A stretch of DNA of 64,000 nucleotides, taken from contig JADIMY010000117.1 of the NCBI GenBank assembly GCA_017694345.1, forward strand, positions 17,865-81,864. The letters are read 5' to 3'. Numbering within the stretch: the first letter of the stretch is position 1; each line of letters begins with the position of its first letter. The DNA is from Candidatus Onthovivens merdipullorum. GTDB taxonomy: Bacteria; Bacillota_I; Bacilli_A; RFN20; CAG-826. This document shows positions 28,072 through 61,817 of the stretch, in pieces. Made by a program: the position numbers and the translations under genes. The notes below the pieces were generated by a model. That model was not told the DNA's origin. It ran no database searches and saw nothing but the letters and a program-made list of their open reading frames with translations.

Positions 28072-28099
28072 AACAACCTTGCAAAACTCAATTATTTTT
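28072..28099 (+). repeat. copy a of the ~30-bp intergenic motif
   Basis: The sequence AACAACCTTGCAAAACTCAATTATTTTT ends at the stop codon of the gene at 28098. Confidence 0.55.
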
Positions 28100-28808
28100 A
28101 CATTTTTCCGAGTTCGTTACATCGATTTAATAGTATTTTTGCTATTTCATCTTTGTCTTCACTAAGTTTTATTAGTTCACTATATTTAATAGGTTTATCA
28201 AAAATATACTTTCTTTTTCTTCTATTTAAATAAGCAACATAAATATCTAAATCTAATCCTCTTTTATAACAATATTCAGCTAAAACTAAAAAACCATTAT
28301 AAAAATGAGTTAGCTTAGTAAAATAACCTTTTGAAGAATCTTCAGGAAAAATAACTAAGTTTTCCTTATGGATTGTTAGAGCTTCATAACTTTCTTTAAT
28401 AGTTTTAACAAAACCAATGCCTTGATATGTTGATATTAAATTTAATCCTTTATAAAAAGAATGCACTAAAGGTGCGGCGATTAAACAAAATGCTTTAGCT
28501 AAATATTTATTCCAGTGTTTCTTTTGATAATAATAGGTTGTACTTAAATATTTATAAACATCTTTTAAAGAACCATTCATCTCATAAGTTCCAAGTAATC
28601 TAACCTGGATTGGACTATATAACTCTAACCTTAATGGACCACTAGATCCCGAATGATTAGACAAAATTAAACTAGATTCTTTAAATGGTTCACCTAAAAA
28701 TATAAATTCTGGTTTTTTAATGGCAATTTTTGTAATCCATTTCAAAAATTTATATGTTTTAGTAGGCTTTATTTCTTTTCTACTTTTTATTAAATTTTCG
28801 TTTTCCAT
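28098..28808 (-). CDS. putative lysophospholipid acyltransferase-like protein
   Basis: The 236-aa ORF has an LPLAT-like motif I remnant (SNHSGSSGP) and a motif III-like FPEDSSKG. The assignment is tentative. Confidence 0.4.
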   Translation of the reverse strand: MENENLIKSRKEIKPTKTYKFLKWITKIAIKKPEFIFLGEPFKESSLILSNHSGSSGPLRLELYSPIQVRLLGTYEMNGSLKDVYKYLSTTYYYQKKHWNKYLAKAFCLIAAPLVHSFYKGLNLISTYQGIGFVKTIKESYEALTIHKENLVIFPEDSSKGYFTKLTHFYNGFLVLAEYCYKRGLDLDIYVAYLNRRKRKYIFDKPIKYSELIKLSEDKDEIAKILLNRCNELGKM

Positions 28809-28846
28809 CGATAGAATTATATAGAACTAATCGTGTAAAATAAACA

Positions 28847-30070
28847 TTATTCGTGATAGTTTGGTAAAAAGAGTTGCCAATAAATAGGTTTTTCTTTATT
28901 AACTAAAGTAATTATAATCATGTTAATGTTGTCTAAAACGATTATTACTCCTAAAGTTACCGTAATCCAAAAAGCAACATTATAGCTTACTGATTTTTCA
29001 AATATCTTGATTAAAGGGGTAAACAAAAACGCCATTAAAGCATATGCTCCAAAGCCATATCCTAAAGCAGGAATTAAACCTGTATATTTAGTAAAATGTA
29101 ATGGAATATTTGAATAATCCCATAAATGTAACCTTGTAGTTGCTTCGTAAAACCATCCAATAGCCAGCTCACCTGCAAAAACAAAAACTGCAGTTGTTAA
29201 AAAATAAGCAATGTGTGAAATTAATTTTGTATTTATAGTTTCAACTTTAAAAACTTTATAACCAAAAAATCTAAAATTGTTTGGTGTTCCTAAAGCTAGA
29301 TACATCGCAAATACCGCTAAACCATAAGGTGCAATAAATGGTAAAAATTGATATCGATTATCTATTACTCCTAAACTTATCGCTCGAACAATATTTTCTG
29401 CAATCCAGCCTAAAAAGCTAGCAACAATCATCACTAATGCAACATAAACAAAATATGTGGTGTGCATTTTAAAATGTTTATTTTCTAAAGTTATTATTCT
29501 TCTTCTAAAATTTAAAGCATCTTTAAAATATTCGCTCATCTTTATATATCCATCCATATTTGGATGAATTGTGTCACCTAAAAATTGATTAACATTTTCT
29601 TTAAAATATTTATCATGATAAAAATCTAGAATAAGAAACTTTTTCCTTTTACGCAGTGTATTAAGTTTTAAAATCATATCTTCATAAATTGGATTATCAA
29701 AACATAGTGATGTAAAAAAGATAATCTTTGCTTTTGTTTTTTCTTTTATTAAGTCGATTATGTTATTAATTGCTCCAAAAGTTGTTTCAGGATTAGTATC
29801 TTCGCAATTTCCAATTTCAATATTATTTTCTTTATTTAAATCATTGGTCGATAATTGAATAACAAAATAATTGTAATCTTTAAAATTATTGATGTTTTTA
29901 CTTAATCTTTCGAAATAAGAATTCTCTTTTTTTGTAGATAAAGTTGTTCCACTTATTGCATCTTTATAAACTAAAGCTCTTTTATCTTTTTTTATAATAT
30001 CACAAAAAGAAATACCATTAGTTAAATAGCCTTCAGTAATACTACTACCTAAAAAGTAAATCTTTTTCAT
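28847..30070 (-). CDS. SGNH/GDSL hydrolase fused to a C-terminal polytopic membrane domain
   Basis: The N-terminus has SGNH blocks (IYFLGSSITEGY; GDTIHPN) and the C-terminal ~200 aa has 6-7 TM helices. The ATG at 30070 (MKKIYF) and the track's TTG at 30091 both lack an obvious RBS, so the start is uncertain. Confidence 0.55.
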   Translation of the reverse strand: MKKIYFLGSSITEGYLTNGISFCDIIKKDKRALVYKDAISGTTLSTKKENSYFERLSKNINNFKDYNYFVIQLSTNDLNKENNIEIGNCEDTNPETTFGAINNIIDLIKEKTKAKIIFFTSLCFDNPIYEDMILKLNTLRKRKKFLILDFYHDKYFKENVNQFLGDTIHPNMDGYIKMSEYFKDALNFRRRIITLENKHFKMHTTYFVYVALVMIVASFLGWIAENIVRAISLGVIDNRYQFLPFIAPYGLAVFAMYLALGTPNNFRFFGYKVFKVETINTKLISHIAYFLTTAVFVFAGELAIGWFYEATTRLHLWDYSNIPLHFTKYTGLIPALGYGFGAYALMAFLFTPLIKIFEKSVSYNVAFWITVTLGVIIVLDNINMIIITLVNKEKPIYWQLFLPNYHE

Positions 30071-30074
30071 ATTT

Positions 30075-31505
30075 TTAATAAGCTCTAGCAAATAATACTA
30101 CATATTTAGCTTTTTTACCACAAACAGGGCAAGTATCATCAAAAGGTAATTCATCAAAAGGGATACATCTAGCAGTTGCTTGATAAAGTTCTTTAATTTT
30201 ATCTTCGCAAGATTGATCACCACACCACATCATCTTAGCGTAACCACCTTTATCTAAAGCTTCTTTCAGTTCATCTAAAGAATGAACTTCTCTTATATTT
30301 TCTAGTAAATTAATAAGGGCTTTTTTATACATTAAAGAATGAATATTAGCTAATTCTTTAGTAATATTTGTTACAAAATTATCGTCAATTCCTAAAAATT
30401 CTTTATTGTGATCGACTCTTCTAACAATAACAGCATGGTTTTTCTCAACATCTTTAGGACCGATTTCAATTCTTAAAGGTACACCTTTCATTTCATATTC
30501 ATTGAATTTCCATCCTGGTGTCTTATCCGATTTATCTAGTTTTGCCCTAAACCCAGCTTTTGTTAAAATTTCTAATACTTCATTGCATTTATCCATTACT
30601 CCTGATTTAGCCATTTGAATTGGAATAATTACAATTTGTGTAGGAGCGACATAAGGTGGCAAAACTAAGCCATTATCATCGCCATGAACCATTATAATTG
30701 CTCCAATTAATCTAGTCGAAACACCAAAAGATGTTTGATATGGAACTTTTATCTTCCCATCACTATCTAAATAGTTAACACCAAAAGCTTTAGCAAAGCC
30801 ATCGCCAAAGTAATGACTTGTCCCACTTTGAAGAGCTTTACCATCGTGCATTAAAGCTTCAATTGAATAAGTCTCTAAAGCCCCAGCAAACTTTTCTTTA
30901 TCGGTTTTTCTACCTTTAACAAAAGGAATAGCTAATAAATCCCTTCCCATCTTGTCATAAACTTCGAGCATTTTTAAAGCTTCTTCTTTTGCTTCATCGC
31001 TTGTTCTATGCATTGTGTGACCTTCTTGCCACAAAAATTCACTCCCTCTAAGAAATGGTCTAGTTGTTTTTTCCCATCTAACTACATTGCACCATTGATT
31101 ATAGAGTTTTGGTAAATCACGATAACTTTTAATAATTTTCGCATAGTGATTTGTAAATAAACATTCACTTGTTGGTCTAATAATTAAGCGATCTTGAATT
31201 TCTTGATTTCCACCGATTGTAGCAATTAATGTTTCAGGAGCAAAACCTTCGACATGTTCTTTTTCTTTATTAAATAAAGATTCGTTAATTACTAAAGGTA
31301 AATAGACATTTTCGTGTCCAGTCTTCTTAAATTCTTTATCTAAATAATTTTGTATTTCTTCCCAAATAGCATAGCCGTATGGACGATAAATAATAAATCC
31401 CTTAACATCGCTATAATCCATTAATTCAGCTTTCTTACATACATCTGTATACCACTGAGCAAAATCGACATCTCTACTAGTAATTTCTTTATTTTTTGTT
31501 TCCAT
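30075..31505 (-). CDS. proS: proline--tRNA ligase, archaeal/eukaryotic type (no editing insertion)
   Basis: The 476-aa class II core has a C-terminal zinc-binding tail (CPVCGKKA...Y) and no bacterial INS editing domain. Confidence 0.9.
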   Translation of the reverse strand: METKNKEITSRDVDFAQWYTDVCKKAELMDYSDVKGFIIYRPYGYAIWEEIQNYLDKEFKKTGHENVYLPLVINESLFNKEKEHVEGFAPETLIATIGGNQEIQDRLIIRPTSECLFTNHYAKIIKSYRDLPKLYNQWCNVVRWEKTTRPFLRGSEFLWQEGHTMHRTSDEAKEEALKMLEVYDKMGRDLLAIPFVKGRKTDKEKFAGALETYSIEALMHDGKALQSGTSHYFGDGFAKAFGVNYLDSDGKIKVPYQTSFGVSTRLIGAIIMVHGDDNGLVLPPYVAPTQIVIIPIQMAKSGVMDKCNEVLEILTKAGFRAKLDKSDKTPGWKFNEYEMKGVPLRIEIGPKDVEKNHAVIVRRVDHNKEFLGIDDNFVTNITKELANIHSLMYKKALINLLENIREVHSLDELKEALDKGGYAKMMWCGDQSCEDKIKELYQATARCIPFDELPFDDTCPVCGKKAKYVVLFARAY

Positions 31506-33279
31506 TGTTATCTCCTTTATACATATTCAGTAACTTTTTAATAATTTTTTTATCTACAGGTGTCGGCATTGGTTTTTTAGGTGCGATTGCATCGCTAGAA
31601 AAATACTCAATTCCACTTTTAACTAGCATTTCAACAGCAGGTAAAGATTTAGAATCATACGACACCATCTTAGAAGTACTAAATTTAGAAAGTCTTCCTA
31701 AATCCATCGTTGCTTTAATAAAATTAGGCGAACTAACTTTAACATTGTCTCCAAATTCACAATCAAAAAAGAAATAATCAAATAAACGATATGTTTTATC
31801 TTTTAAGTTATAAGCATCCGTATACAAAAATAAAGCAATTTCAAAACCTTTTTCTTTTAAATTTTTAAGACTTTTAATAAGTGTTTCATTATTTTCATTA
31901 TCAATCAATTCACTAACATTAAATCCTAAAATTAAATTATTTGAAAAATCATTATAATGACTTAAATTTTTAGAAGCGATATCGATTAAATCTACACCAA
32001 CATTTAATAAAAGTTTAGAACTTCCTTCTTTTTCTTCTTTAAATACCGTGATAACTTTTTGAATCATAATCGAAAAAACTTCTTTTTTCTTATCATACTT
32101 AATCGCATATTTTTTAAATTGATCAAAAGATGTAAAAATCGAATTATTTAGCTCTAAAAAAGACATGTATCCAAGAGTTATAACTCTAGTATTAGCAATA
32201 TGGACGATTGGTCTAAATAAAGCCGTGATTTTTTGACTTCTTATGACATTTAAAACTTCTAATCGATAATTATCGATATTTAAATTATTCTTTTGTTTTC
32301 GATCATAAATTGTGTATTTCTTTTTCTCATTTTTATCTAAATTAGTAACTTTATACATAGTATTTAAGCAATTTTCAAAAGTTAAACTATCGAGATCTTT
32401 AGTTAAACTTGCGTAAATATAGTAGTCAAAATTTTCAGTTAACCCATATATCTCCAAACTTTTTTCAATCTTATTTTTAAGTAACTCAAGATTAGAACAT
32501 AACCCATACGATTCATTAGGTAAATTACTTCTATTATCGACAAAAATAATTTCATCTTGTTTACTTTCTGGTAGATAAAATAAAGTTTTTGTAATATTTT
32601 TTTCCTCAGCGATAATATTTAAAACTAAATAACGAAGTTCATCAAAATTTGTTAAACAAGGTATATTAGTCTTTTTGTTAAATTTAATGATATAAAAAGC
32701 GGCTTTAGAATAGTTACCAGTTTTAAAAGCTTCTTTTATTTCGGTAAGATTATAAATTATTTTTTTAGATATCGTTCTTTTTTCAGTTATTACACTAAAA
32801 GGAATATTTGAAAGAGATTTTTCTTCGATAGTAATACCTCTATTTTTATAGTCAACATTGGAACAAACAAAAAGTTTAGAAACTAAATATATCGATTTAT
32901 TCTTTTTTACTTTATAAAGGACTCTTCTCACTGAATTAGTTAAATTTTTATTTTCTTCAATTGGCTCATCGACAAATTTAACAAGCCATTTATATAATTT
33001 TTTAGTTTCGTCAAATTCATCTAAATAACTATCTAAGCTCTTTTTTGTTTTCTTCTTTAAGTTTTTAATATTAAAAACAACTGCTGTATCATTTTTAAAA
33101 TTAATTAAAACTTTTCTTTCAAAATCTTGTTTTTTTAAAGTTACATTTTTAAATTTTTTAGCTTTTAGATAAAGCGACAAAAAATATAAACCAAACAAAG
33201 CAATTATCACTATTGCTAGGATGATGAATATATAAATTGCAATTATTTCATTAGTGTCTAAAAAAATAGTTAAATGCAT
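31489..33279 (-). CDS. membrane-anchored protein with degenerate EAL-like domain
   Basis: It has an N-terminal TM helix. The C-terminal ~250 aa follow the EAL topology (FRPIV...GYMSFLEL; LLNVGV; FLYTDAYN; GIEYFSSD) with several catalytic positions substituted. It is 596 aa. Confidence 0.45.
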   Translation of the reverse strand: MHLTIFLDTNEIIAIYIFIILAIVIIALFGLYFLSLYLKAKKFKNVTLKKQDFERKVLINFKNDTAVVFNIKNLKKKTKKSLDSYLDEFDETKKLYKWLVKFVDEPIEENKNLTNSVRRVLYKVKKNKSIYLVSKLFVCSNVDYKNRGITIEEKSLSNIPFSVITEKRTISKKIIYNLTEIKEAFKTGNYSKAAFYIIKFNKKTNIPCLTNFDELRYLVLNIIAEEKNITKTLFYLPESKQDEIIFVDNRSNLPNESYGLCSNLELLKNKIEKSLEIYGLTENFDYYIYASLTKDLDSLTFENCLNTMYKVTNLDKNEKKKYTIYDRKQKNNLNIDNYRLEVLNVIRSQKITALFRPIVHIANTRVITLGYMSFLELNNSIFTSFDQFKKYAIKYDKKKEVFSIMIQKVITVFKEEKEGSSKLLLNVGVDLIDIASKNLSHYNDFSNNLILGFNVSELIDNENNETLIKSLKNLKEKGFEIALFLYTDAYNLKDKTYRLFDYFFFDCEFGDNVKVSSPNFIKATMDLGRLSKFSTSKMVSYDSKSLPAVEMLVKSGIEYFSSDAIAPKKPMPTPVDKKIIKKLLNMYKGDNNGNKK

Positions 33280-33283
33280 AACT

Positions 33284-33313
33284 AAAAGTATACACTAAAA
33301 GTGTATGCTTTTA
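33284..33313. terminator. terminator-like hairpin abutting the EAL-like gene start
   Basis: The sequence AAAAGTATACACT-AAAA-AGTGTATGCTTTT forms a 10-bp stem (one G-U) with flanking A and T runs. It lies 5 nt from the ATG at 33279, leaving no room for an RBS. Confidence 0.35.
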
Positions 33314-33375
33314 TAGTTGAAAGATAAAACTTGATATATCAAAATCGAATATTTTTTATTAAAATAAGTGTTACT

Positions 33376-33465
33376 GGAGAAATACCCAAGTGGTTTAAGG
33401 GGACGGTCTCGAAAACCGTTAGGAGTGAATAGCTCGCAGGGGTTCAAATCCCCTTTTCTCCGCCA
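33376..33465 (+). tRNA. tRNA-Ser (anticodon CGA)
   Basis: It has a GGAGAAA/TTTCTCC acceptor stem, a CTCGAAA anticodon loop, a long variable arm, the TTCAAAT T-loop and an encoded CCA. Confidence 0.9.
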
Positions 33466-33537
33466 AAGAGTCGGAATTAAGTATTCAAAATTATTATTTT
33501 ATACGAGTCCATTTTAAATAAAAGTGTTTATAAATTA

Positions 33538-33568
33538 TTAAAAAGCCTGCAAAACTCAATTATTTTAT
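33538..33568 (+). repeat. copy b of the ~30-bp intergenic motif
   Basis: The sequence TTAAAAAGCCTGCAAAACTCAATTATTTTAT overlaps the last 3 codons and stop of the YitT-like gene. Confidence 0.6.
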
Positions 33569-34639
33569 AGGTTTTCTAAAGAATTTACCATAAACTTGAG
33601 CCATTGGGAAAACATTTATAAAAGCTTTATTATCAATTTCTTTAACTATTTTTATAACTTTTTTAACTTCACTTTTTCTAACTGAAACATGAATAACAAA
33701 TAAATCGTTTCCACTATAACCGCCTTTACCATTTATAATAGTACATCCATGAGGAATAGCAGCAATTATAGATTGAGATAAATTATAGTTAGGAGTAATT
33801 ATTTGAATTTCAAATTTCTTATTGGTTGTATTAATTTGATCAACAACAAAAGAAATAACAATCATATACATAACTGTAAATAAGAAAATAATGATTGCCG
33901 TTGCTGGTTCTACGCTTTGTAAATCTGGATTAGGAAACAATTCGGTATTTACTGGAATTACAGATAATATCGAATAAATACCAACTACAAATAAGTTAAA
34001 TAAAGCACTATATTTTCCTATTTGAACAGACTTTCTTTCGCTTATATAAAAAGCAATAATATCTGTTCCACCGGCGGTAGAATCTATTAAATAAGCTAAA
34101 GCACTAGCAATACCTGTACATGAAGCAGCAAAAATAACTCTAGCAACTGTCTCTGTCGCCATTTGAGTAGCAATTAAATTTAAAATATTATTTGGATCAG
34201 TGCTTTTAAGCAAAATACCAAATCCTGAAGCACAAGCAACATTAAGTAAAGAATAAATCGCAAATTTTTTACCTACTTTAAAAAATCCCAAGAAAAATAA
34301 AGGAACATTTACAACAAAATAAAATATCCAATACATCAAATTAAACTAAAAGTCGTTTGCAACAAAACCAGCCCCACATAATTTTAAAATAGCGACCAAA
34401 GATTGAGAGATTCCACTAGCTCCACAACTTGCTAAATGATAAATAGTTACCTCGTTAGCTACTTCAGCTGGAATTACATCAAAATTAGGTTGAATAAAAC
34501 AATTAAATCCAAAAGCGAAGATAAAACCACTTAAAATAGTGACTAATATCATCCAAGTATTATTGAGTATTGAGTTTTGAACTGGGTGATCGTAGAAGTA
34601 ATTTTTAACTTTCTTTTTTAATCTAATAAAAGCATACAT
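33560..34639 (-). pseudogene. YitT-family (DUF161+DUF2179) membrane protein interrupted by one in-frame TAG
   Basis: The ORFs at 34346..34639 and 33560..34339 are in the same frame (...VANDF-TAG-FNL-MMYWIF...). Together they give the full YitT architecture, and no RBS precedes the downstream ATG. Confidence 0.6.
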
Positions 34640-35701: not shown

Positions 35702-35734
35702 TTAAATAGTAATTATCATTTTGATATGCTTCCT

Positions 35735-35762: not shown

Positions 35763-35769
35763 ATAAGTT

Positions 35770-36249: not shown

Positions 36250-36250
36250 A

Positions 36251-36793
36251 TTATTTACTCCTTAAAATGTACATTAAAGTTTTACTATATTTTAAAAGCT
36301 TAAAGTTAAATTTATCTAATAACTCTTTATCTAATTCTTTATCTCTTTCGATAATTATCACTGAATCTAAATTAATTATATTTAATTTATATAAATTATT
36401 AACAAATTCTAAATCGATATTATAAATATATGGAGGATCAATAAATACATAATTAAAACTATTGTTTATTTTATTTATAACTTTATAAAAATCATCAAAA
36501 TGTGTGCAAATCTCAGTTATTTTTAAAGAATTTAAATTATTTTTAATAGTTTTTATAGCTTCTAAATTATTCTCTATTAAAGTAACTTTGGCGCCTCTAC
36601 TATATGCTTCAATCGCAATAGCTCCACTTCCACTAAAACAATCTAAGAATGTTTTATTTTTAATATCGCCTAAAGAATTAAATAAACCTTCTTTAGCGAT
36701 ATCTTTAGTTGCTCTAGTAATATTTAAAGGAGGTTGTTCTAATTTTCTTCTTTTATAAATTCCACCAACAACTCTAAGCATCAATATCTCCAA
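36251..36793 (-). CDS. rsmD: 16S rRNA (guanine966-N2)-methyltransferase
   Basis: It has the DPPY motif and a SAM motif (LDCFSGSGA). It lies 1 nt upstream of coaD as in Bacillus (ylbH). Confidence 0.85.
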   Translation of the reverse strand: MEILMLRVVGGIYKRRKLEQPPLNITRATKDIAKEGLFNSLGDIKNKTFLDCFSGSGAIAIEAYSRGAKVTLIENNLEAIKTIKNNLNSLKITEICTHFDDFYKVINKINNSFNYVFIDPPYIYNIDLEFVNNLYKLNIINLDSVIIIERDKELDKELLDKFNFKLLKYSKTLMYILRSK

Positions 36794-37171: not shown

Positions 37172-37717
37172 ATGAAAATTTTTAAAATTGTAAAAGATAA
37201 CAAAAAAAGTTTAAGAGAAAAATCATTAGAAATAACATTCCCTTTAGATAAAGAATTAGAAGATACTTTACTTGATATGGTTGAATATTTAAAAATTAGT
37301 CAAAATGACGAATTAGCTAAAAAGTATCATCTTCGAGGTGGTGTAGGATTAGCTGCTCCACAAATTGGAATAAATAAAAGAATGTTAGCAATTTATGTGG
37401 AAATGGACGAAAAAGTATACGAATATGCTTTAATAAACCCTAAAATAATCTCTGAATCAGCAAAACTTACTTATTTACAAGGTGGAGAAGGCTGTTTATC
37501 AGTAGATTCCGAACATAATGGTTATGTTTATCGTCACTACAAAATAAAAGTTCAAGCTTTTAATTTATTAACTAATAAAGAAGAAATTTTAGAATTTAAA
37601 GGATATTTAGCAATTATTGCTCAACACGAAATAGATCATCTAGATGGTGTTTTGTTCTATGATCGCATCAATAAATTAAATCCTTTTGAAGTTAGAAAAA
37701 ATAGCATTGCTATTTAA
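37172..37717 (+). CDS. def: peptide deformylase
   Basis: It has all three deformylase motifs: GVGLAAPQIG, EGCLS and HEIDHLDG. Confidence 0.9.
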   Translation: MKIFKIVKDNKKSLREKSLEITFPLDKELEDTLLDMVEYLKISQNDELAKKYHLRGGVGLAAPQIGINKRMLAIYVEMDEKVYEYALINPKIISESAKLTYLQGGEGCLSVDSEHNGYVYRHYKIKVQAFNLLTNKEEILEFKGYLAIIAQHEIDHLDGVLFYDRINKLNPFEVRKNSIAI

Positions 37718-38279
37718 TAGAGCTATTATATTGATATATTTTATTTAGTTTATAAATATAGTCGGATAGTTCAGTTGTCGAAGTATCACATTTTTGATTT
37801 ATCCGCATTTTAATAACACTAAAGCAACCTTCCATTAAAAATACATTAGTGTAATTAACAAACTTTTTATCATTTCCAGAAGTAGCATAATTATTATAAA
37901 AAATTTCTTCGATTATAGAATTCGTAAAAAGTTTCTTTGGAAAATTAGGATCAACATTGTTATTAATTAAAAGTTTAGCAAACTTATAATTATCTTTAAT
38001 ATAATCTAAAACTTTTTTTAATCTCTTCTTTAATGGAATATTAATATTCTTAGATTCATTAATATAGCTCATAATGTCTTCAATGAAACGGTCTTCCATG
38101 AACTGGAGTAATTCTATTTGAGAATTAAAATGTTTATAGAAAGTACTTCTATTTATACCTGCAACATCACATAATTCTTTAATTGAAACATTATAAATAC
38201 TCTTTTCTTCTAATAAAGAAATTAAAGCATCTTCTAATAATTTTATCGTTAATCTTGCTCTTTGATTTAACTCTACCAT
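37710..38279 (-). CDS. TetR-family transcriptional regulator
   Basis: It has an N-terminal HTH (VSIKELCDVAGINRSTFYKHF) and is 189 aa. It is divergent from the ABC transporter genes. Confidence 0.75.
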   Translation of the reverse strand: MVELNQRARLTIKLLEDALISLLEEKSIYNVSIKELCDVAGINRSTFYKHFNSQIELLQFMEDRFIEDIMSYINESKNINIPLKKRLKKVLDYIKDNYKFAKLLINNNVDPNFPKKLFTNSIIEEIFYNNYATSGNDKKFVNYTNVFLMEGCFSVIKMRINQKCDTSTTELSDYIYKLNKIYQYNSSIK

Positions 38280-44209: not shown

Positions 44210-44241
44210 TTAAAATAGTTGAGATTTGCAAGGTTTTTTAA
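44210..44241 (-). repeat. copy g of the ~30-bp intergenic motif (reverse orientation)
   Basis: The reverse complement is TTAAAAAACCTTGCAAATCTCAACTATTTTAA. It lies 20 bp from the ZIP gene stop. Confidence 0.6.
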
Positions 44242-44260: not shown

Positions 44261-45085
44261 TTATAATAATAACAAAAATGAAACTATAACAATACCTAAT
44301 AAAATGAATAAAAATGAATATCTACTTTTATATTCATTTAATGTTTGAGGTATTAATTCTATAAAAATAACAAATAATAAACTACCAGCACTAATACTAA
44401 TTAGCACTCCAACAAATAAATCATTTATTGAAATAGTTGAGATAAAATAACTAATAATTCCAAGTATTAAAGCAGGTAAACTACTTATTAAAGTCATTAA
44501 GATACTAAACTTAGTAGACTTACCACTACTTAAAAAGGATGAACACATTGAAAATCCAATAATCAAATTATGAATTAATAACACTATACTAAAAATAATT
44601 CCTTCTAAAGGAACTTTAGAATCACTAATAAAACTTAATCCTAAAGTAATGCCTTCAGGAACATTATGTACAAAAATAGCTCCTAAATATATAAAACTAG
44701 TTATTAATAAAGAATTAGAATTATTAAATAATTCAATAGAATGAGCATGATCTTCGCAAGGTTCTTCATCGTTATGATCTTCCTTATGATGATGAGAAAA
44801 TTTATGAATTAATTCATGTAATAAAAAGAATAAAACTCCACTAATTAAAATAATACCTAAAGATAATAAGCTACCATATAAATCATTATTAAAATATAAA
44901 TTTAAGTGTTCAAAAGAATGTGAAAATAATTCAACAAATAAAAATGCTAAAATAGCCCCTAAAGAAAAATTTTGTAAGAAAATAAATATTATTTTAGGTA
45001 ATTTCTTACTTAATAAAGATAAAACACTACCAATCAATGTAGCTATAAATGTACCTAAGAAAGTAAATAAAAACATGTAAACCAT
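44261..45085 (-). CDS. ZIP-family metal (zinc) transporter
   Basis: It has the ZIP signature HNVPEGITLG, a His-rich loop (HHHKEDHNDEEPCEDHAHS) and 8 TM helices. Confidence 0.8.
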   Translation of the reverse strand: MVYMFLFTFLGTFIATLIGSVLSLLSKKLPKIIFIFLQNFSLGAILAFLFVELFSHSFEHLNLYFNNDLYGSLLSLGIILISGVLFFLLHELIHKFSHHHKEDHNDEEPCEDHAHSIELFNNSNSLLITSFIYLGAIFVHNVPEGITLGLSFISDSKVPLEGIIFSIVLLIHNLIIGFSMCSSFLSSGKSTKFSILMTLISSLPALILGIISYFISTISINDLFVGVLISISAGSLLFVIFIELIPQTLNEYKSRYSFLFILLGIVIVSFLLLL

Positions 45086-45253
45086 AATTAATATATTAGT
45101 TCAAAATTTAATAGATAAAAAGAATTAGAGTAATATTTATTAAGATATAAAAGAATTTAATTAATTTAGTTTAAATTTGAGGTGTCATAAAAACTTTATA
45201 AATTAAATAAGATACATTTATAGTTCATATTTTTAAAAATACATCTATAAAAC

Positions 45254-45286
45254 AAAAAAGCTCGCGGTGAACCACGAGCCTTTTTG
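45254..45286. terminator. rho-independent terminator downstream of the small minus-strand ORF
   Basis: The sequence AAAAAAGCTCGCGGTG-AA-CCACGAGCCTTTTT forms a GC-rich stem. Confidence 0.5.
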
Positions 45287-45310
45287 TTCGGATTTATAAA
45301 TATGTCAATT

Positions 45311-45454
45311 TTACTTTCTACTGCTTCCTAAATAATTTTTAAAATCAGGATAGAATAAATGTTCATATTCTCCTTCAACATTTCTTTCTTTGCTACTATT
45401 TTCATTTAATCCATATTTTCTTTTTAATTCTTGTTCATACTTTCTTAAATTCAT
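45311..45454 (-). CDS. small hypothetical protein (47 aa), not in the ORF track
   Basis: It encodes MNLRKYEQELKRKYGLNENSSKERNVEGEYEHLFYPDFKNYLGSSRK. It has AGGAGG 10 nt upstream and its own terminator. Confidence 0.45.
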   Translation of the reverse strand: MNLRKYEQELKRKYGLNENSSKERNVEGEYEHLFYPDFKNYLGSSRK

Positions 45455-45629
45455 ATCTTTTTTGCCTCCTAGCGACTATAAATATAGTATCTTTTTCATA
45501 TTAATCAATTAAAAAGAGACGATTAAATCGAAGAAAAAAGCGCTTACATAAACTTTTACATTTTAAAATAATAAGAATAAATCGATATTTTATTAATTAA
45601 TAAAATAAATTTATGAAAGTGTTTACAAT

Positions 45630-46787
45630 TTAACTAGTTTTAAAATAATCAAACCTTGATTCACCTTTAATATTAATAACTTCTCTACTTTCTTTTTCTT
45701 CTTTAAAGTTTTTACTTTCTTCAATAAGTAATTTAATTATTAATCTTAAACATTTTTTAATAGTGGTTTTTTCTATTTCATTAAGCTTATTATATGTCTT
45801 TATTAAGCCTATTAAAGTCTTAACAAGATTAGACCTAAATTCAATGATATCTTTTGCTTTAGTTCCTTTGATTAATAAATAACATAAATTAATGAATTCT
45901 TTTCTTTCTTCTTTAGGTAAATCTTTAACATATTTACTAATTGCAATATTTAATGTTTTACTAGTAGAAGATAAATAAGTTGCAAATATAAAGTGATTAT
46001 TTTTATCTATTATCCAGCTAAATAAATCGTGTTGTAATAAACCTTTAGTACTACTACTTATTATATAAGTATCTAAAGGATTATTAAAAACCATTCCAAA
46101 AATTGACATCGATGGAACAATAGTTATTATTTTATTTTTTGTAATTTCATCATTTACTTTTATATTTAATCCAGGTCCATCAAAATTAAAGACATTTACT
46201 ATTTTATTTTTTACTCTTTTATATGAAAAATAACTAGCATATAAAGCTAAGTTTCCGCCTTTAGAATGACCGCCTAAATATAAGTTTTTAATTCCTTTAA
46301 GTTTCAATTTATTTACATAGTTTTTTGCACTAATTTGTGAAGGAATTGTATCTAAATAACTTAAATTAAAATCTTCTTTCCACCCAATTATAGATAAATC
46401 AGTCCCACTAAAAGAAACATAAATAGTATTGTGACTAATTTTTACACTTAAAGAACAAAATTGCTTTTCAGATTTTTTAGAAATCTCACGCTCAAAATTA
46501 AATATTTTAAGATCTTTAAATCGTTTTGTTCTTACTAAAACTTTTAAAAATCTATTTCTAGGAGTTTCAATATCTGCTTTTTTAACTAATTCAGGATAAA
46601 GAAAATATATATGTGTAGCTTCCTTTATTGTTAACTCATAATTTTCTTTATCTAGCATAAAATAAAAATGATAATAAGATAAATTAGCAAATATTAAAGC
46701 ATCGATAATATTAAAATTTAGTTCATTAAAATCATAATTTCCAACTCTTTCTAAATAACTAAATAGGTAAGAAACATTGTATTTCAT
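45630..46787 (-). CDS. Mbeg1-like/DUF2974 alpha/beta-hydrolase (lipase class 3-like)
   Basis: It has the GHSKGG nucleophile elbow (LYLGGHSKGGNLALYASYF) and is 385 aa. Confidence 0.6.
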   Translation of the reverse strand: MKYNVSYLFSYLERVGNYDFNELNFNIIDALIFANLSYYHFYFMLDKENYELTIKEATHIYFLYPELVKKADIETPRNRFLKVLVRTKRFKDLKIFNFEREISKKSEKQFCSLSVKISHNTIYVSFSGTDLSIIGWKEDFNLSYLDTIPSQISAKNYVNKLKLKGIKNLYLGGHSKGGNLALYASYFSYKRVKNKIVNVFNFDGPGLNIKVNDEITKNKIITIVPSMSIFGMVFNNPLDTYIISSSTKGLLQHDLFSWIIDKNNHFIFATYLSSTSKTLNIAISKYVKDLPKEERKEFINLCYLLIKGTKAKDIIEFRSNLVKTLIGLIKTYNKLNEIEKTTIKKCLRLIIKLLIEESKNFKEEKESREVINIKGESRFDYFKTS

Positions 46788-46813
46788 ATGATTATTTTAG
46801 TTTATTTCAAAGT

Positions 46814-46839
46814 AAAAGTCCAAAAAATATTGGACTTTT
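46814..46839. terminator. hairpin terminator after the EF-G paralogue
   Basis: The sequence AAAAGTCCA-aaaaatat-TGGACTTTT forms a perfect 9-bp stem and overlaps motif copy h. Confidence 0.5.
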
Positions 46840-46852
46840 ACAAGGTTTTTAA
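46820..46852 (-). repeat. copy h (degenerate) of the ~30-bp motif, reverse orientation
   Basis: The reverse complement is TTAAAAACCTTGTAAAAGTCCAATATTTTTTGG, about 80 percent identical to the consensus. Confidence 0.45.
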
Positions 46853-52777: not shown

Positions 52778-52808
52778 TAAAAATAATTGAGTTTTGCTTG
52801 GTTTTTAA
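52778..52808 (-). repeat. copy c of the ~30-bp motif, reverse orientation
   Basis: The reverse complement is TTAAAAACCAAGCAAAACTCAATTATTTTTA. Its TTA is the stop codon of the gene at 52805. Confidence 0.6.
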
Positions 52809-53284
52809 TCAAATAAACCTTTATATTCACTTTTTAATTCTTTAATTAAATTCTCTTTTTGAAGATCATTTAATTTATCATCTTCATTAGCATATTTATT
52901 TGAAGTTAGTTCGTGATAAATAAGAAAAATAACATTGATAAGTGTTATTAAACAAATAAAGGAAAGATTAAAAATAGAAAATAAATTAAATAAATGTTCG
53001 TTAGTAAAATTAAAAACACAACTAAAAACAATTAATATCAATAATATGAATGAACACATAATATCAAAAACAAAAACTTTACTTAAATATTTTATATGAA
53101 TGCAAGTATTGATATTATTATCTTTTTTATATAGTTTATTTAATCTACTTTCTTTCTTTAATAAGAATTTTCTCAAATAAACTAAAGAAACTTTGCTACC
53201 TTTAGGTAAACCACTATTAATAAAATATTTATATGTTAACCATAAGAAGAATATAATAAATAAAATCCAAATTAAATTAATCAT
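52805..53284 (-). CDS. small 4-TM membrane protein, hypothetical
   Basis: The 159-aa ORF has its 3' 135 nt duplicated at 59310..59444. Confidence 0.5.
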   Translation of the reverse strand: MINLIWILFIIFFLWLTYKYFINSGLPKGSKVSLVYLRKFLLKKESRLNKLYKKDNNINTCIHIKYLSKVFVFDIMCSFILLILIVFSCVFNFTNEHLFNLFSIFNLSFICLITLINVIFLIYHELTSNKYANEDDKLNDLQKENLIKELKSEYKGLFD

Positions 53285-54566: not shown

Positions 54567-55562
54567 AGTTATCCCTTTTTCTTTATAAAAATTTATTGTT
54601 TCTTCTTTCCAGATTGAAGATTGCACTTCTCCAATATGTAATTTTTTAAGCATAAACATACAAATACGAGATTGACCGATACCTCCTCCTAAAGTAAAAG
54701 GTAATCCTTCATTTAATATTAACTTATGAAATTTATAATTTAATATCTCTTCTTTATTCAAAAATTTAGCTTGTTTAATTAAAGAAGGACTATCTACTCT
54801 AATTCCCATACTTGATAGCTCAAGAGCGTCATCTAAAATAGGATTATAAACATAAATATCACCATTTAATTTCCAATCATCATAATCAGGTGCACGATGA
54901 TCTTGAGGAATACCATCGCTTAAAGGATAGCCAATTCCTATAACAAAACAGGCTTTTACTTCTTTAATAAATGTATCTACTCTTTCTTTAGGTGATAAAT
55001 CAGGATATTTTTTAAGCAATTCTTCGCTTGTAATAAAAGTTATTTTATTAGGTAATATCTTTTCGATATTAAATTTTTTAAAAGCAAAATCTTCAGTCTT
55101 CTTTATAACACTATAAATTCTTTTAACATAATCTTTTAAAGTTTTGATTGTCCTTTCTTTTTTGTTAATAATGAGTTCATAGTCCCATTGATCAACATAA
55201 ATAGAATGATAATTATCTCTTATTTCATCTTTTCTAATCGCATTCATGTCGGTATAGATACCTTCATGAACCTCTAAGCCATATTTAGCAATATTTAATC
55301 TTTTCCATTTAGCTAAAGAGTGAACTATTTCTATATTATTTTCAAAATCATTAATCTTAAAAGAAACCGGAACTTCAACACCATTAAGATCATCATTGAT
55401 TCCTGTTTTACTTAGAACAAATAAAGGAGCGGTTACTCTTAACAAATTAAGTTTTTTAGCTAAATGAGATTCAAAATATTCCCTTATTTTTTTAATAGCT
55501 ATTTCGTTTTCTTTTAAATTCAGATTAGATTTATAACCTTCCTTATATCGATTTATTTCCAT
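54558..55562 (-). CDS. asnA: aspartate--ammonia ligase (asparagine synthetase A)
   Basis: It aligns with E. coli AsnA at the VHSLAKWKR, SSMGIRVD and GGGIGQSR blocks. AAGGAG lies 7 nt upstream. Confidence 0.9.
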   Translation of the reverse strand: MEINRYKEGYKSNLNLKENEIAIKKIREYFESHLAKKLNLLRVTAPLFVLSKTGINDDLNGVEVPVSFKINDFENNIEIVHSLAKWKRLNIAKYGLEVHEGIYTDMNAIRKDEIRDNYHSIYVDQWDYELIINKKERTIKTLKDYVKRIYSVIKKTEDFAFKKFNIEKILPNKITFITSEELLKKYPDLSPKERVDTFIKEVKACFVIGIGYPLSDGIPQDHRAPDYDDWKLNGDIYVYNPILDDALELSSMGIRVDSPSLIKQAKFLNKEEILNYKFHKLILNEGLPFTLGGGIGQSRICMFMLKKLHIGEVQSSIWKEETINFYKEKGITLL

Positions 55563-55589
55563 AATTTACTCCTTCTTAATTCATTTAAA

Positions 55590-55620
55590 AAGCCTTTAAT
55601 TCGAATAAAATTAAAGGCTT
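55590..55620. terminator. rho-independent terminator
   Basis: The sequence AAGCCTTTAATT-cgaataa-AATTAAAGGCTT forms a perfect 12-bp stem followed by ATTTTATT. Confidence 0.55.
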
Positions 55621-55626
55621 ATTTTA

Positions 55627-55658
55627 TTAAAAACCTTCTAAAACTCAACTATTTATTT
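55627..55658 (+). repeat. copy d of the ~30-bp motif
   Basis: The sequence TTAAAAACCTTCTAAAACTCAACTATTTATTT overlaps the stop of the gene at 55653. Confidence 0.55.
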
Positions 55659-57728: not shown

Positions 57729-57808
57729 TTATTTTAAACGATTGATAGCAATACTTCACTAAAAAATTAGTGTTGAGTATAAAAATAAAAATAAATAGAA
57801 TTATAAAC

Positions 57809-58414
57809 ATGCCTTATCTAACGATTATTTTAATTAGTCTATCACTTGCTATGGATGCTCTAACTGTAGCAATAATTGACGGACTTACAATGAAAAACTT
57901 AACTAAACCAAAAATGATTTTTATTTGTTTGATGTTTAGTTTATTTCAAGGTTTATTTCCTTTTGCTGCTCATTTCATAGGCACTACTTTTATGTCTTAC
58001 ATCGAAGATTATGATCATTGGATTAGCTTTGCTTTACTTTTACTAATTGGTGGAAAAATGATTTTCGATGGAATAAAAGAAGTTATTAATAAGAAAAAAG
58101 GTGTTGTTGAAGAAAATAATGCTAATACTTTTACATATAGAAAAATATTTATTCAAGCAATTGCTACTGCAATCGATGCTTTTGCAATCGGAATAACTTT
58201 AGAAAGTAGTACTCAACCTATTAATATTTATTACGATGTTTTATTTATTATTGGAATAACTTTTTTATGTTGCTTAATTGGTATTTTCTTAGGCAAACAA
58301 ATTACAAAAGTTATTAAAGGACACTATGAAATTGGTGATTTTATTGGTGGAATCGTTTTAATTTTAATTGGAGTAAAAATTGTTTTATCTCATTTAGGAT
58401 ATTTACCATTTTAA
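57809..58414 (+). CDS. mntP: MntP-family (DUF204) putative manganese efflux pump
   Basis: It has a duplicated 3-TM module with DA motifs (SLAMDALTVA; ATAIDAFAIG). I chose the ATG at 57809. Confidence 0.65.
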   Translation: MPYLTIILISLSLAMDALTVAIIDGLTMKNLTKPKMIFICLMFSLFQGLFPFAAHFIGTTFMSYIEDYDHWISFALLLLIGGKMIFDGIKEVINKKKGVVEENNANTFTYRKIFIQAIATAIDAFAIGITLESSTQPINIYYDVLFIIGITFLCCLIGIFLGKQITKVIKGHYEIGDFIGGIVLILIGVKIVLSHLGYLPF

Positions 58415-58445
58415 ATATATTATTTAAGGAGGATGTTTATTTTAT

Positions 58446-58874
58446 ATGAAAAAATTTATTATACCTTCAATTATTTATGCAATACTTGGTGCTTTAGGTG
58501 GAGTATTTTATAGAGAATTTACCAAAGCGATAGGATTTACTAACGAAACCTCTTTAAGCGTAGTTCATACACATTATTTAATATTAGGTATGATTATGTT
58601 TTTAATACTTTTGCTATTTGAAAAATCATTTTCTTTTAGTGATAAGAAAACAAATATTACATTAATCTTTTATCATATTGGATTAAATATAACCGGTGTA
58701 ATGCTATTTGTTAGAGGAATTTTAGAAGTACTAAATACTAATTTATCAAGTGGAATAAATGCAATGATTTCAGGAATAGCTGGAATAGGACACTTAATTC
58801 TAGGTGTTTCTTTAGTTTTAATTTTAATTTTCTTAGCAATAAAACTTTTTAAAAACAGTAAAGCAAGTAACTAA
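58446..58874 (+). CDS. small 4-TM membrane protein, hypothetical
   Basis: The 142-aa ORF has AAGGAGG upstream. Confidence 0.5.
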   Translation: MKKFIIPSIIYAILGALGGVFYREFTKAIGFTNETSLSVVHTHYLILGMIMFLILLLFEKSFSFSDKKTNITLIFYHIGLNITGVMLFVRGILEVLNTNLSSGINAMISGIAGIGHLILGVSLVLILIFLAIKLFKNSKASN

Positions 58875-58911
58875 AATTAATAAAAATAATTAGGATTTTG
58901 TCGTTATCTAA

Positions 58912-59294
58912 AGCAATTTATCCTGTTTTGCACAGGTTGCTTCATAAATATTATGTCGTGTTTTGAAGTTTTTGTAAGCTTCATAAATTATTTTTTTCAC
59001 AAATACATATTTTCTAGTTTTTCACGAATGTTTTCTTCGCTTATTTTTTTGTTTTTAAAAAATAAATCACGTATAACATTTGCAAGATCATTTATCGAAG
59101 AATAATCAATCATTAAATAATATTCATAAACTAGAGAACAAAGATGCTCAAAAATTTAATCATTTCTCTCTTTTACATACTCTCTAATTAAAATATCCAC
59201 TTCATTTGCTATAAATAGTTTAGTTATATTTAATTCTTGTTTCTTTGCAACATTTAGTAATTCTAAATATTTCTTTTTCTATTATTCCTTTCAT
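58912..59294 (-). pseudogene. degraded ORF remnant with frameshifts
   Basis: About 125 codons of helical-protein-like sequence (MKGIIEKE / KKYLELLNVAKKQELNITKLFIANEVDILIREYVKERND / IFEHLCSLVYEYYLMIDYSSINDLANVIRDLFFKNKKISEENIREKLENMYL / KKIIYEAYKNFKTRHNIYEATCAKQDKLL) are spread over three frames. The frame breaks fall at A/T homopolymers. Confidence 0.3.
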
Positions 59295-59309
59295 TGTTGC
59301 TTTTACACA

Positions 59310-59444
59310 ATCAATGTTATTTTTCTTATTTATCACGAACTAACTTCAAATAAATATGCTAACGAAGACGATAAATTAAATGATCTTCAAAAAGAGAATT
59401 TAATTAAAGAATTAAAAAGTGAATATAAAGGTTTATTTGATTAA
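59310..59444 (+). pseudogene. orphan 3' fragment duplicating the last 44 codons of gene 52805..53284
   Basis: There are 133/135 nt identical and both differences are synonymous. The encoded peptide INVIFLIYHELTSNKYANEDDKLNDLQKENLIKELKSEYKGLFD is identical, with no start or N-terminal part. Confidence 0.6.
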
Positions 59445-59471
59445 AAAGCCTGCAAAACTAAAATATTTTTT
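59441..59471 (+). repeat. copy e of the ~30-bp motif
   Basis: The sequence TTAAAAAGCCTGCAAAACTAAAATATTTTTT spans from the stop of the orphan fragment to the stop of the DUF2075 gene. Confidence 0.6.
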
Positions 59472-61330
59472 TAATTTTTGTTTAATTTTTCTTTTAAATA
59501 ATTTCTTAATGCTTCATCTTCACAATAAATGTAGCAACCTTTAATTCCTCTAGTTAAAAGTACTTTGTAAGTTCTTCTAATTAGTTTATCAGCTTCTTCA
59601 TTTGAAGTACTTTTTAATCTAATTCCACTTGTCTTATCATCTTTTGATATTGCATTACGGTTTGTTTGTACATGTCCATCTTTATAATAGAGATCTTTAC
59701 CAATAATAATGCCGACATAATCAAATTCCATTCCTTGACATGTATGAATACAACCAACTTCTTCAAAAGAATTAGGATTTACTGCCCAATGGTCATCGTT
59801 AGCTAAATTCCATTTTGCTTTAAAACCATTTGGAAGTATGATATCCCATTCGCCTTTTTTATTTTTTACATTCCAATCATAACAATAACCTGCAATCATT
59901 CTAGTTTTGTTATTTATTTTATTTAATTCTCTTAATTCATCTCTCATTTTGATAGGATCATCAAAAACCTTAACTTTAAGATTATTAAATTCAAAATTTG
60001 TATTAGCTGTTTGCTTAATTTCTAATAAATTATTTAAAAAAGAAATATAACCATCACTTCCATCACATCTAAATTGAGAAGTTAATTCATAAGGTTTATG
60101 AATAATTGCATTTTCATTTTTAGCATACATAATAATTGAATTTACATCATATTTATCATTAATAGTAATTCTTTGGTCATCATCAACAAAAAATATTGAA
60201 ACTTTACTTGCTTTAATAGCGTCTTCAAGCATATCATTACCTAAATATCTATAAGGTTTCTTTTGCATACGATGTGCTTCATCAAAAATACCTACATCAA
60301 GTCCGTTATATATCGTATTAGGTAAACACCATGGAGATTGAATTGCTTTTTGAAGGTTAACCATCTTTTTAGCATTACCTTTTGCTAATAAGTTAGCATA
60401 ACACTTTCTTGGAGCCATATTTTTTGTTATATAAGAGGTATTTAGTTTTAAATCTATAATACATCTAGCTAATATATTAATTGCTAAAACTGATTTCCCA
60501 GTTCCTGGCCCCCCAGTAATTATAAGAACATGCTTCCTAGTGTCATTTTGAGATTCTTTGATTGCTTTCATAATTTTATCATAAGCAACTACTTGTTCAT
60601 CAATCATATGAAATTCTTCATTTCCACAAAGCATTGAATCTAAGGCATCTTGAAGAGATTTAGTAGGTTTTAATCTTCCTTCTTCAATTTTATAAAGTAA
60701 AGAACCATCATTTGCTTTTAACTTTATATAATTTTTAACAAAGTTTCTTAATTTTAAAACATCACTTTGTAAAAATACTGGCGCTTCTTCTATCCATTCA
60801 TGATATAAATTATCTTCGATTATAGGACGATATTCTTCACTTAAATTGTGCAAATATGCACATGGTTTTAATGTCTTATTATTAATTGAAACTGAATCAT
60901 TAGAATAATCTAATATTAATTGTTTATAAGAATAAGCTTGATAAGAAGGATGAGCAACAGGTTCATGACTTCTTAAATCAGACATTATTGAATGATCACA
61001 ATTATCATCAACTTTATTAACTCTAGCCCATTGTTTTAATTCAATAATAACGACATGGTCTTCTGTATTATTATTGCCCATAATCATAAAATCAACACGT
61101 TTAGAAGTTTGAGGAATATTATATTCAATAGCAACTTGACATTCGTTATCAAAATAAGAATCATCTAAAACATCTTTCATAAAGTGTAAAGAATTATTCC
61201 GTGAATTTATTTCACTGGCTGATCCTCCACTTAAACCTTTCTCTCTAAGTGTTTTTAAAAGAATGCTTTGCATCGTATTAAAAGTAACATCAGTTCTAAA
61301 ATCTTTTAATGACTTATTATAAATAATCAT
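59471..61330 (-). CDS. DUF2075-type protein: N-terminal PD-(D/E)xK-like nuclease motif + P-loop SF1-like helicase/ATPase domain
   Basis: The 619-aa ORF has the nuclease-like motif VDFMIMG...IIELKQW. It also has Walker A (ITGGPGTGKS), Walker B (IFDEAH) and further helicase-like motifs. Confidence 0.7.
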   Translation of the reverse strand: MIIYNKSLKDFRTDVTFNTMQSILLKTLREKGLSGGSASEINSRNNSLHFMKDVLDDSYFDNECQVAIEYNIPQTSKRVDFMIMGNNNTEDHVVIIELKQWARVNKVDDNCDHSIMSDLRSHEPVAHPSYQAYSYKQLILDYSNDSVSINNKTLKPCAYLHNLSEEYRPIIEDNLYHEWIEEAPVFLQSDVLKLRNFVKNYIKLKANDGSLLYKIEEGRLKPTKSLQDALDSMLCGNEEFHMIDEQVVAYDKIMKAIKESQNDTRKHVLIITGGPGTGKSVLAINILARCIIDLKLNTSYITKNMAPRKCYANLLAKGNAKKMVNLQKAIQSPWCLPNTIYNGLDVGIFDEAHRMQKKPYRYLGNDMLEDAIKASKVSIFFVDDDQRITINDKYDVNSIIMYAKNENAIIHKPYELTSQFRCDGSDGYISFLNNLLEIKQTANTNFEFNNLKVKVFDDPIKMRDELRELNKINNKTRMIAGYCYDWNVKNKKGEWDIILPNGFKAKWNLANDDHWAVNPNSFEEVGCIHTCQGMEFDYVGIIIGKDLYYKDGHVQTNRNAISKDDKTSGIRLKSTSNEEADKLIRRTYKVLLTRGIKGCYIYCEDEALRNYLKEKLNKN

Positions 61331-61647
61331 AATTTAGTATATTTATTTGCTTTTCCTTTACACTTCTCTATTGGATATTTTAATTCGTTTTTATCTAATT
61401 TATTATTAATAATTTCATCTTCATCTAAATTAAGAACATCTAACATATTTTGACAATAAATTAATACATCCGCTAACTCATCTTTAACTTCATTTACATC
61501 AAAATCATTTTCATTCCATTGAAAACATTCTAATAATTCATTAGCCTCAATACTAATTGATTTTGCTAAATTTGCAGGATTATGAAATTTATCCCGATCT
61601 CTTTCTTTGGAAAATTTTCTAATTCTATCTTTTGAATTTTTGTTCAT
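61327..61647 (-). CDS. MazG-like nucleotide pyrophosphohydrolase (small all-alpha NTP-PPase)
   Basis: The 106-aa ORF has the pattern SIEANELLECFQW...ELADVLIYCQNMLDVLNLDEDEII typical of the YpjD/MazG-like family. It overlaps the DUF2075 gene by 4 nt. Confidence 0.6.
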   Translation of the reverse strand: MNKNSKDRIRKFSKERDRDKFHNPANLAKSISIEANELLECFQWNENDFDVNEVKDELADVLIYCQNMLDVLNLDEDEIINNKLDKNELKYPIEKCKGKANKYTKL

Positions 61648-61785
61648 ATGAAAATTGTAATCTTTTTAGGCAAAAAAATCATTAATTGAGTTTCAGTTTA
61701 CATTTTCAAACAAAATTAAGTAAAAAGTTATTATTGATTTTTACATTAAAAATTAAATTATTTTTCAAAAAAGTCATGTTTTTTT

Positions 61786-61817
61786 ATAAAAAGCTTGCAA
61801 AACTCAACTATTATTTT
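61786..61817 (+). repeat. copy f of the ~30-bp motif
   Basis: The sequence TATAAAAAGCTTGCAAAACTCAACTATTATTTT has a partial inverted copy (AATTGAGTTTCAG) at 61688..61702. Confidence 0.55.

Follow-up and report, generated by a model that had tools for sequence, protein, structure and literature searches.

The window analysed here (the whole 64-kb stretch, 26% G+C) comes from Candidatus Onthovivens merdipullorum and is part of an 86-kb ENA metagenome contig, 75 kb of which were inspected. Dispersed among its genes is a short repeated word, AAAAA-SCYTGCAAAWCTCAAYTA-TTTTT, a unit of about 28 bp in which an asymmetric 18-bp core is held between A5 and T5. Both A5 and the T-tail were also conserved among 125 non-redundant copies, though they lie outside the pattern used for searching, and only weak A/T phasing was seen beyond the 28-bp unit. 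A position weight matrix (PWM) trained on 94 copies, all from other genomes, gave 13 sites at or above the cut-off of 12 bits in the window, compared with 0.005 expected under a third-order Markov null. Four of these sites lie inside genes (maf, prmC-like, rsmD-like and pseudouridine synthase) and two within canonical hairpin terminators.

The eight copies that the original prediction had described, here a to h, were all recovered. With at most 3 mismatches, the core CCTTGCAAAACTCAA occurs at 28077 (+), 33545 (+), 44219 (-), 46831 (-), 52787 (-), 55634 (+), 59448 (+) and 61793 (+), and the same search gave 11 matches in the window compared with 2.84 ± 1.6 in shuffled sequences. The 31-mer consensus written at that time contained a surplus base (sCCTTGC, corrected to SCYTGC), and it therefore matched only one site at up to 3 mismatches. 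Copy a (28072-28099, +, 36.0 bits) is intergenic, between the stop of a gene for 236 amino acids (aa) at 28098 and the start of a HAD hydrolase gene at 27994, and has an orthologous copy in a relative (L086, 5132). Copy b (33540-33567, +, 41.7 bits) lies between tRNA-Ser (+) and the stop of yitT (33560), and together with its 3' flank it forms a weak hairpin (-9.9/-12.5 kcal/mol). Copy c (44211-44238, -, 43.1 bits) is found between a ZIP transporter gene stop (44261) and a CNNM gene start (44130). Copy d (46823-46850, -, 14.7 bits) belongs to a divergent 'AAAAGTCCA' sub-type, which also occurs in the relatives' loci L086, L066 and L116, and in the terminator scan it forms part of a perfect hairpin terminator of 11-12 bp (46812-46841). 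Copy e (52779-52806, -, 32.2 bits) fills the 43-nt gap from the stop of a 159-aa membrane protein gene to the ribosome-binding site and ATG of an aldo-keto reductase gene, hence transcription must read through it. Copy f (55629-55656, +, 26.6 bits) adjoins the stop of an OYE/FMN oxidoreductase gene (55653) and a separate hairpin (55590-55620). Copy g (59443-59470, +, 30.1 bits) has a duplicated gene fragment on one side and the stop of a DUF2075/SLFN-like helicase gene (59471) on the other, and copy h (61788-61815, +, 35.9 bits) is located in a 417-nt spacer upstream of a MazG-like gene, away from stop codons. The contact with stop codons claimed earlier was thus confirmed for five copies, a, b, f and g at 0-8 nt from the core on its 3' side and e at 3 nt on its 5' side, and was not found for c (27 nt), d (18 nt) and h (257 nt). 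Likewise, dyad symmetry is indeed lacking in a, c, e, f, g and h, while d (a perfect 11-bp hairpin) and b (pairing with its flank) contradict the claim. The labels given to the gene modules between the copies do not correspond to the copy letters.

It had also been stated that no copy lies in the first 28 kb and that every copy is intergenic; both statements had to be withdrawn. The copy in maf (24918-24945, +, 32.2 bits) is on the sense strand, codes for KNPANLKDF, scores (32 bits) above copies e, f and g, and is conserved in the maf gene of a relative (L095). A second sense-strand copy (1538-1565, -, 20.8 bits) is located in the prmC-like methyltransferase gene (840-1715). Antisense copies were found in the rsmD-like gene (36497-36524, +, 19.7 bits) and near the 3' end of a pseudouridine synthase gene (11283-12254, identified by Pfam) at 11313-11340 (+, 15.6 bits). 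In addition, a motif-like sequence at 13280-13307 (-, 13.1 bits), downstream of a 710-aa gene, supplies both the 5' arm and the loop of a canonical hairpin terminator.

The relatives also carry the word inside genes. Exact 20-nt matches were present in mnmE (five metagenome-assembled genomes, MAGs), mnmG, priA (two MAGs) and ispD, and further ones in genes for an ABC exporter, an addB-like product, a HAD hydrolase, a glycosyltransferase and an ECF ATPase; the copy in the ABC exporter gene overlies the conserved IEF..V.F.Y stretch. The in-gene copies use both strands and every stop-free frame, and the exact matches occupy four reading frames. The clade loci gave 147 motif hits in 728 kb (98 exact and 49 non-ascertained), and 17 of the 98 exact and 9 of the 49 non-ascertained copies lie well inside long open reading frames (ORFs), about 18% regardless of ascertainment by the pattern. 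Chance was rejected as their origin, as about 1e-4 exact matches per Mb are expected and at least 10 independent genes hold one. Insertion was rejected as well. Alignments to solved homologues revealed no insertion of 9-10 aa at the in-gene copies and no change in length, and the codon alignments displayed substitutions: motif-free relatives carry unrelated sequence of equal length at the motif position in maf and rsmD, and comparison of the window rsmD copy with its orthologues showed point changes towards the consensus. This overwriting was confined to motif-bearing genomes. Although the proteins concerned share only 53-63% identity, their orthologous in-gene copies rank among the top 2-10% of nucleotide windows by conservation. 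The in-gene copies arose by substitution, not insertion, and their overwriting and conservation indicate that a force acting at the DNA level writes the word into coding sequence. They are the decisive finding of this analysis.

The exact 20-nt pattern SCYTGCAAAWCTCAAYTATT was then scanned over 185,579 species genomes (596 Gb), where it occurs at no fewer than 111 loci. Among the matches listed, about 97 come from about 20 MAGs of low GC content that carry the labels Bacilli, Mollicutes or Candidatus Onthovivens, with many per genome, and about 14 of the 111 are single stray loci in unrelated phyla, which is about the chance level. The motif-bearing MAGs are from gut and rumen. Species-level variants ('dialects') were observed as well, namely TGCAGAACTC in JAFUXB/JAQXNS and the AAAAGTCCA form. 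In about a quarter of the copies (L086, L095 and L069 among them), the motif's own AAAACC is preceded by a further AAAACC(Y) at a distance of about 21 bp, and one locus (L094, 4503-4560) contains a partial tandem duplicate of the motif 5' half (AAAAACCCTGCAG). No match to the motif was obtained among the 2.9 million viral contigs of IMG/VR, and the flanks of the copies are unrelated save for one large assembly duplicate (L029/L102); a phage or mobile origin was therefore rejected. The exact word has no occurrence in the searchable literature, where the matches were primer coincidences only.

Six loci of 16-21 kb around proS orthologues (L116-L121) were picked regardless of the motif. Five copies were present in the 21 kb of L119, and both L119 and the window have a motif density of about 1 per 5 kb. 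L116 and L117, whose ProRS identity is 85-87%, contain weak copies only, including decayed ones at the orthologous site b. Site b is also occupied in L055 and L073, and the copy is absent in L118, L120 and L121. All six proS loci hold an antisense tRNA-Ser, a 59x-aa gene and proS together, so that the a-b 'module' belongs to the core genome. Downstream of proS, the motif-free L118 carries an inserted island (15705-21428) with a type IIG-like methylase/Eco57I gene and a large serine recombinase, which is absent from the window.

In the spacers of the clade, 43 antisense-oriented and 20 sense-oriented copies were counted between co-directional genes, together with 20 in convergent and 9 in divergent spacers. 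The density per kb of spacer is 1.64 for co-directional, 2.51 for convergent and 0.68 for divergent spacers, and on one side of a copy there is usually a stop codon at a distance of 0-15 nt. The word itself offers stops, TAA at the A-tract (T+AAAAA) and TAR and TGA on the other strand, and genes often end inside it. A common RNA fold was sought in 14 folds on both strands and none was found; copies a, c, e, f, g and h folded no better than shuffles, with z-scores of about 0 for a, e, f, g and h, and Rfam matched tRNA only. An intrinsic terminator was rejected as the general identity of the word, given that a GC-rich hairpin with a U-tract is not general and that the hairpins in the window are limited to b, d and 13280; L004 and L039 hold further hairpin-recruited copies. 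Hairpin terminators were predicted in 35 of 89 spacers with the motif and in 65 of 148 without it (odds ratio 0.83, p = 0.5). No association in either direction was thus observed, and hence the motif does not replace hairpin terminators. A sigma-70 promoter was rejected too: TTGCAA/TTGAGT could serve as a -35 element, but no conserved -10 element exists at a fixed spacing in either direction, and the orientation of the copies does not follow gene starts: for 40 of the 92 copies in spacers, no gene begins downstream in the orientation that a promoter would need.

The duplicated gene fragment reported at copy g is real, and 52779-52980 matches 59470-59270. The fragment (59270-59470, +) repeats, in decaying form, the 3' end of the 159-aa membrane protein gene (52805-53284) and is joined to copy g. 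By blastn the identity is 89.7% over 203 nt; the last 135 nt have 2 mismatches, followed by 17/22 exactly at the core, so the high identity ends at the boundary between A-tract and core. The fragment is situated in a long spacer before the DUF2075 helicase gene, with about 100 nt of weaker similarity further upstream.

Several other features of the region are recorded here. Left of the window (about -2473 to -700; L114 12416-14189), a second ZIP transporter gene is followed by a 50-aa ORF, mirroring the pair of ZIP gene and 47-aa ORF at 44261-45630. The two ZIP genes have no nucleotide similarity, and weak motif-like sites of 15.1 and 10.3 bits lie on either side of the left pair. The interval 13347-22709 is a 9.4-kb minus-strand operon for four large proteins without a motif copy; one is a 1211-aa BspA-type leucine-rich-repeat protein, and Pfam matched none of the remaining three (710, 594 and 602 aa). 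The 359-aa YitT/DUF2179 gene (33560-34639, minus strand) is intact except for an in-frame TAG at 34343-34345. The public gene call treats it as a single product, the orthologues in L095, L118 and L120 are uninterrupted, and the TAG could reflect a pseudogene, a sequencing error or read-through. From 59471 to 63969 and beyond (L115 409-6092) the contig resembles a defence island, with the DUF2075/SLFN-like helicase, the MazG-like pyrophosphatase and a 1029-aa AAA_11/AAA_12 helicase with a DUF2726-like end; copies g and h are at or within this cluster. The codon CGG is nearly unused (3 in about 20,000 codons), and the three are in 37710-38279, 59471-61330 and the MazG-like gene 61327-61647 (minus strand). 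In the last of these, CGG is codon 18 (61594-61596) and aligns with a conserved Trp of dCTPase/MazG-like homologues (RDW.qfH). A reassignment of CGG to Trp has been reported for Onthovivens (PMC13092985), and a rare CGG at a conserved Trp fits it.

The original prediction interpreted the copies as an att-like recombination site bounding exchangeable gene cassettes. The genes between the copies, the in-gene copies and the junctions kept without the motif do not support this, and we regard it as very improbable. The segments carry proS and tRNA-Ser (between a and b) and asnA, pfk and an EF-G-like gene (in others), and tRNA-Ser, the 59x-aa gene and ProRS are conserved in every relative examined. 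Conservation of a bracketed module in place without the motif, which by the original prediction's own terms would refute it, was observed for junction b: L118, L120 and L121 keep YitT, tRNA-Ser, the 59x-aa gene and ProRS without it (the motif-free L120 junction being YitT / tRNA-Ser / 583-aa gene / ProRS), and synteny also breaks at motif-free junctions. The check for a recombinase found no integrase or recombinase among the annotations and Pfam hits of the inspected 75 kb, the consensus has no dyad, inverted core sites, imperfect palindrome or common fold, and copies were also written into essential genes by substitution. What speaks for recombination is that the e/g duplication ends at the motif, that species differ in their gene order around sites a and b, and that weak copies flank the ZIP gene left of the window. 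The duplication and the change of gene order at a and b could reflect recombination between or beside copies, and the end of the e/g duplication at the motif is the piece of this idea that survives. The same duplicated fragment, abutted by a copy, would also suit a miniature non-autonomous repeat, like a repetitive extragenic palindromic (REP) sequence or a miniature inverted-repeat transposable element, whose copies are propagated by an enzyme acting in trans and are tolerated chiefly behind genes. Dispersed copies with sub-families, patchy occurrence among relatives, the preference for gene 3' ends as in REP elements and the partial tandem duplication in L094 would agree with such a repeat, and REPs and the mosaic elements built from them (BIMEs), mobilised by RAYT transposases, are likewise dispersed 30-40 bp repeats downstream of genes that are rare between divergent promoters. 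REPs, however, are palindromic, strictly extragenic and spread by insertion, whereas the present word is asymmetric and also entered genes by substitution with their length unchanged (maf and rsmD show no indel against empty orthologues). It has no terminal inverted repeats, palindrome or target duplication, its unit is only 28 bp and its flanks are unrelated. No transposase is near the window copies, an ISL3 fragment having been seen in L117 only, and an origin of this type is thus unlikely.

Two further explanations were weighed. A hairpin-independent or factor-dependent terminator, or another RNA element of the 3' untranslated region, would be suggested by the layout of A-tract, core and T-tract, which resembles the bidirectional terminators of this genome, by stop codons within 0-15 nt of most copies, and by the true hairpins at b, d and 13280. 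This is improbable, as the word has no common fold on either strand and no Rfam match, is used in both orientations, is carried by 11 divergent spacers, is independent of predicted terminators and is found inside essential genes, while copy e leaves no space for a new promoter before the next ATG. More weight belongs to the main rival, a high-affinity site for a lineage-specific DNA-binding protein on the resident chromosome, which we consider less likely than not. The predicted binder might be a nucleoid or domain-organising factor, or a roadblock or insulator at gene ends, and genome-wide selection of sites would explain in-gene copies where a spacer is lacking. The long asymmetric motif, whose A-tracts are helically phased (AAAAC at -4 and +6, T5 at +18), the frequent extra AAAACC about 21 bp upstream, the preference for spacers with a gene end over divergent ones, and the orientation ratio of 43:20 relative to transcription all agree with protein binding. 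Sites a and b keep their downstream gene but not their upstream one, and the patchy presence of the motif would agree with one trans factor having been gained or lost. However, no candidate protein is at hand, a roadblock would do damage inside priA, mnmE, mnmG or ispD, as it would at copy e, 25 nt ahead of a co-transcribed ATG, and no negative association with hairpin terminators exists. Known chromosomal sites of such kind (parS, NBS and matS) are palindromic and far fewer, which also counts against it. Tus-Ter and mTERF-type sites are likewise long (23-28 bp) and non-palindromic and could act in either orientation at gene ends; unlike the motif, they are few per genome, at defined places, and not over-represented in essential genes.

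The original prediction had listed a protein-binding boundary element or a DNA-uptake-type sequence as its alternative, and this is where the evidence points. We assign a probability of roughly 0.4 to the reading that the word is a lineage-specific self-DNA signature kept by a sequence-biased process, like the uptake signal sequence (USS) of Pasteurellaceae and the DNA uptake sequence (DUS) of Neisseriaceae. Among described elements, only these uptake sequences share the set of properties observed here, and thus such a tag is ranked first. A process that acts on double-stranded DNA and is blind to strand and coding status would keep the word over-represented; the likeliest would be biased uptake of self-DNA in natural transformation followed by recombination, i.e. 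a molecular drive like that of USS and DUS. We infer from the sequence pattern both that DNA uptake is the driving process and that a receptor for the word exists. Copies would arise by point substitution wherever tolerated and so would pile up in the least constrained DNA, in compact genomes the few bases after stop codons. Others would be written into tolerant stretches of genes in stop-free frames, some would later be co-opted into terminator hairpins, and copies would decay in lineages losing the specificity.

The resemblance to the known uptake sequences is considerable. Like the USS of Haemophilus and other Pasteurellaceae, the word is over-represented on both strands, has flanking A/T tracts and species variants, is tolerated inside many genes with the rest in spacers, and lies in terminators at some copies. 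For USS, tolerated coding copies, an extended motif with T-tracts, co-option into terminators and genomic copies biased by mutation towards AT have been described (PMC3458573). Like the DUS of Neisseria, the word is mostly in intergenic or permissive DNA, is conserved in divergent surroundings, has dialects and is rare in foreign DNA. DUS are known to be mostly intergenic or in permissive DNA and highly conserved in divergent surroundings (PMC2397512), to form dialects between species and to be rare in foreign DNA (PMC2397512, PMC3630211). The differences are equally clear. In USS, the core spans 9 bp, of which about 4 bases are critical, and copies occur about once per 1.2 kb, mostly in genes (1302/2000), whereas here about 20 positions are conserved and about 80% of the copies, spaced about 5 kb apart, are intergenic. 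Its hosts are Pasteurellaceae, whereas the present word is from Bacillota. DUS measures 10-12 bp, often forms terminators as inverted pairs, is bound by the pilin ComP and is present throughout the family, whereas single copies prevail here and the distribution is patchy. The word does not qualify as a member of the USS/DUS family, being longer, about five times sparser, patchy, mildly orientation-biased and from Bacillota, a phylum without a known uptake sequence.

A number of observations weigh against the reading as a self-DNA signature. The unit of about 28 bp is far longer than USS or DUS, and there is about 1 copy per 5 kb as opposed to about 1 per kb for these sequences. A shorter hyper-abundant core was sought and not found, the 8-mer excess being accounted for by full copies. 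The copies are seldom inverted pairs, and in co-directional spacers they show the orientation bias of 43:20, whereas H. influenzae USS has no effect of transcription direction. L118, L120 and L121 contain zero motif copies in 63 kb, so that the distribution is patchy, and no alternative repeat was found in these three loci. On the ProRS tree, motif-bearing and motif-free lineages interleave, which points to gain or loss of a trans-acting factor. No competence genes or receptor were seen in the 75 kb of contig and the scattered 8-kb blocks of relatives, which represent a few per cent of each genome; motif regular expressions for prepilins and type II secretion ATPases and a Pfam scan of large membrane proteins gave only FeoB, MFS, YidC and ABC proteins from this small sample. 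Finally, sequence-specific uptake has been documented only in Pasteurellaceae and Neisseriaceae (PMC5031613, PMC7811141).

The word can also serve as a practical marker for binning contigs of this lineage. Because close relatives have strong, decaying or absent motifs, the trans factor should be findable by genome comparison. If this factor is a chromosomal DNA-binding protein, the word would still point to a genome-wide system that has not been described before and is powerful enough to rewrite coding sequence in essential genes. Returning to the uptake-type signature, we tentatively propose that the word may be the first DNA uptake signal outside Proteobacteria, a 28-bp self tag that restricts transformation in uncultured, genome-reduced Onthovivens-like gut Bacilli and whose specificity would have been repeatedly gained or lost in the clade. 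If so, a comparison of gene content between motif-bearing and motif-free relatives could identify the receptor. A third independent and much longer uptake tag, in Bacillota, would mean that self-recognition in transformation evolves repeatedly, and that sexual isolation operates in uncultured gut bacteria.

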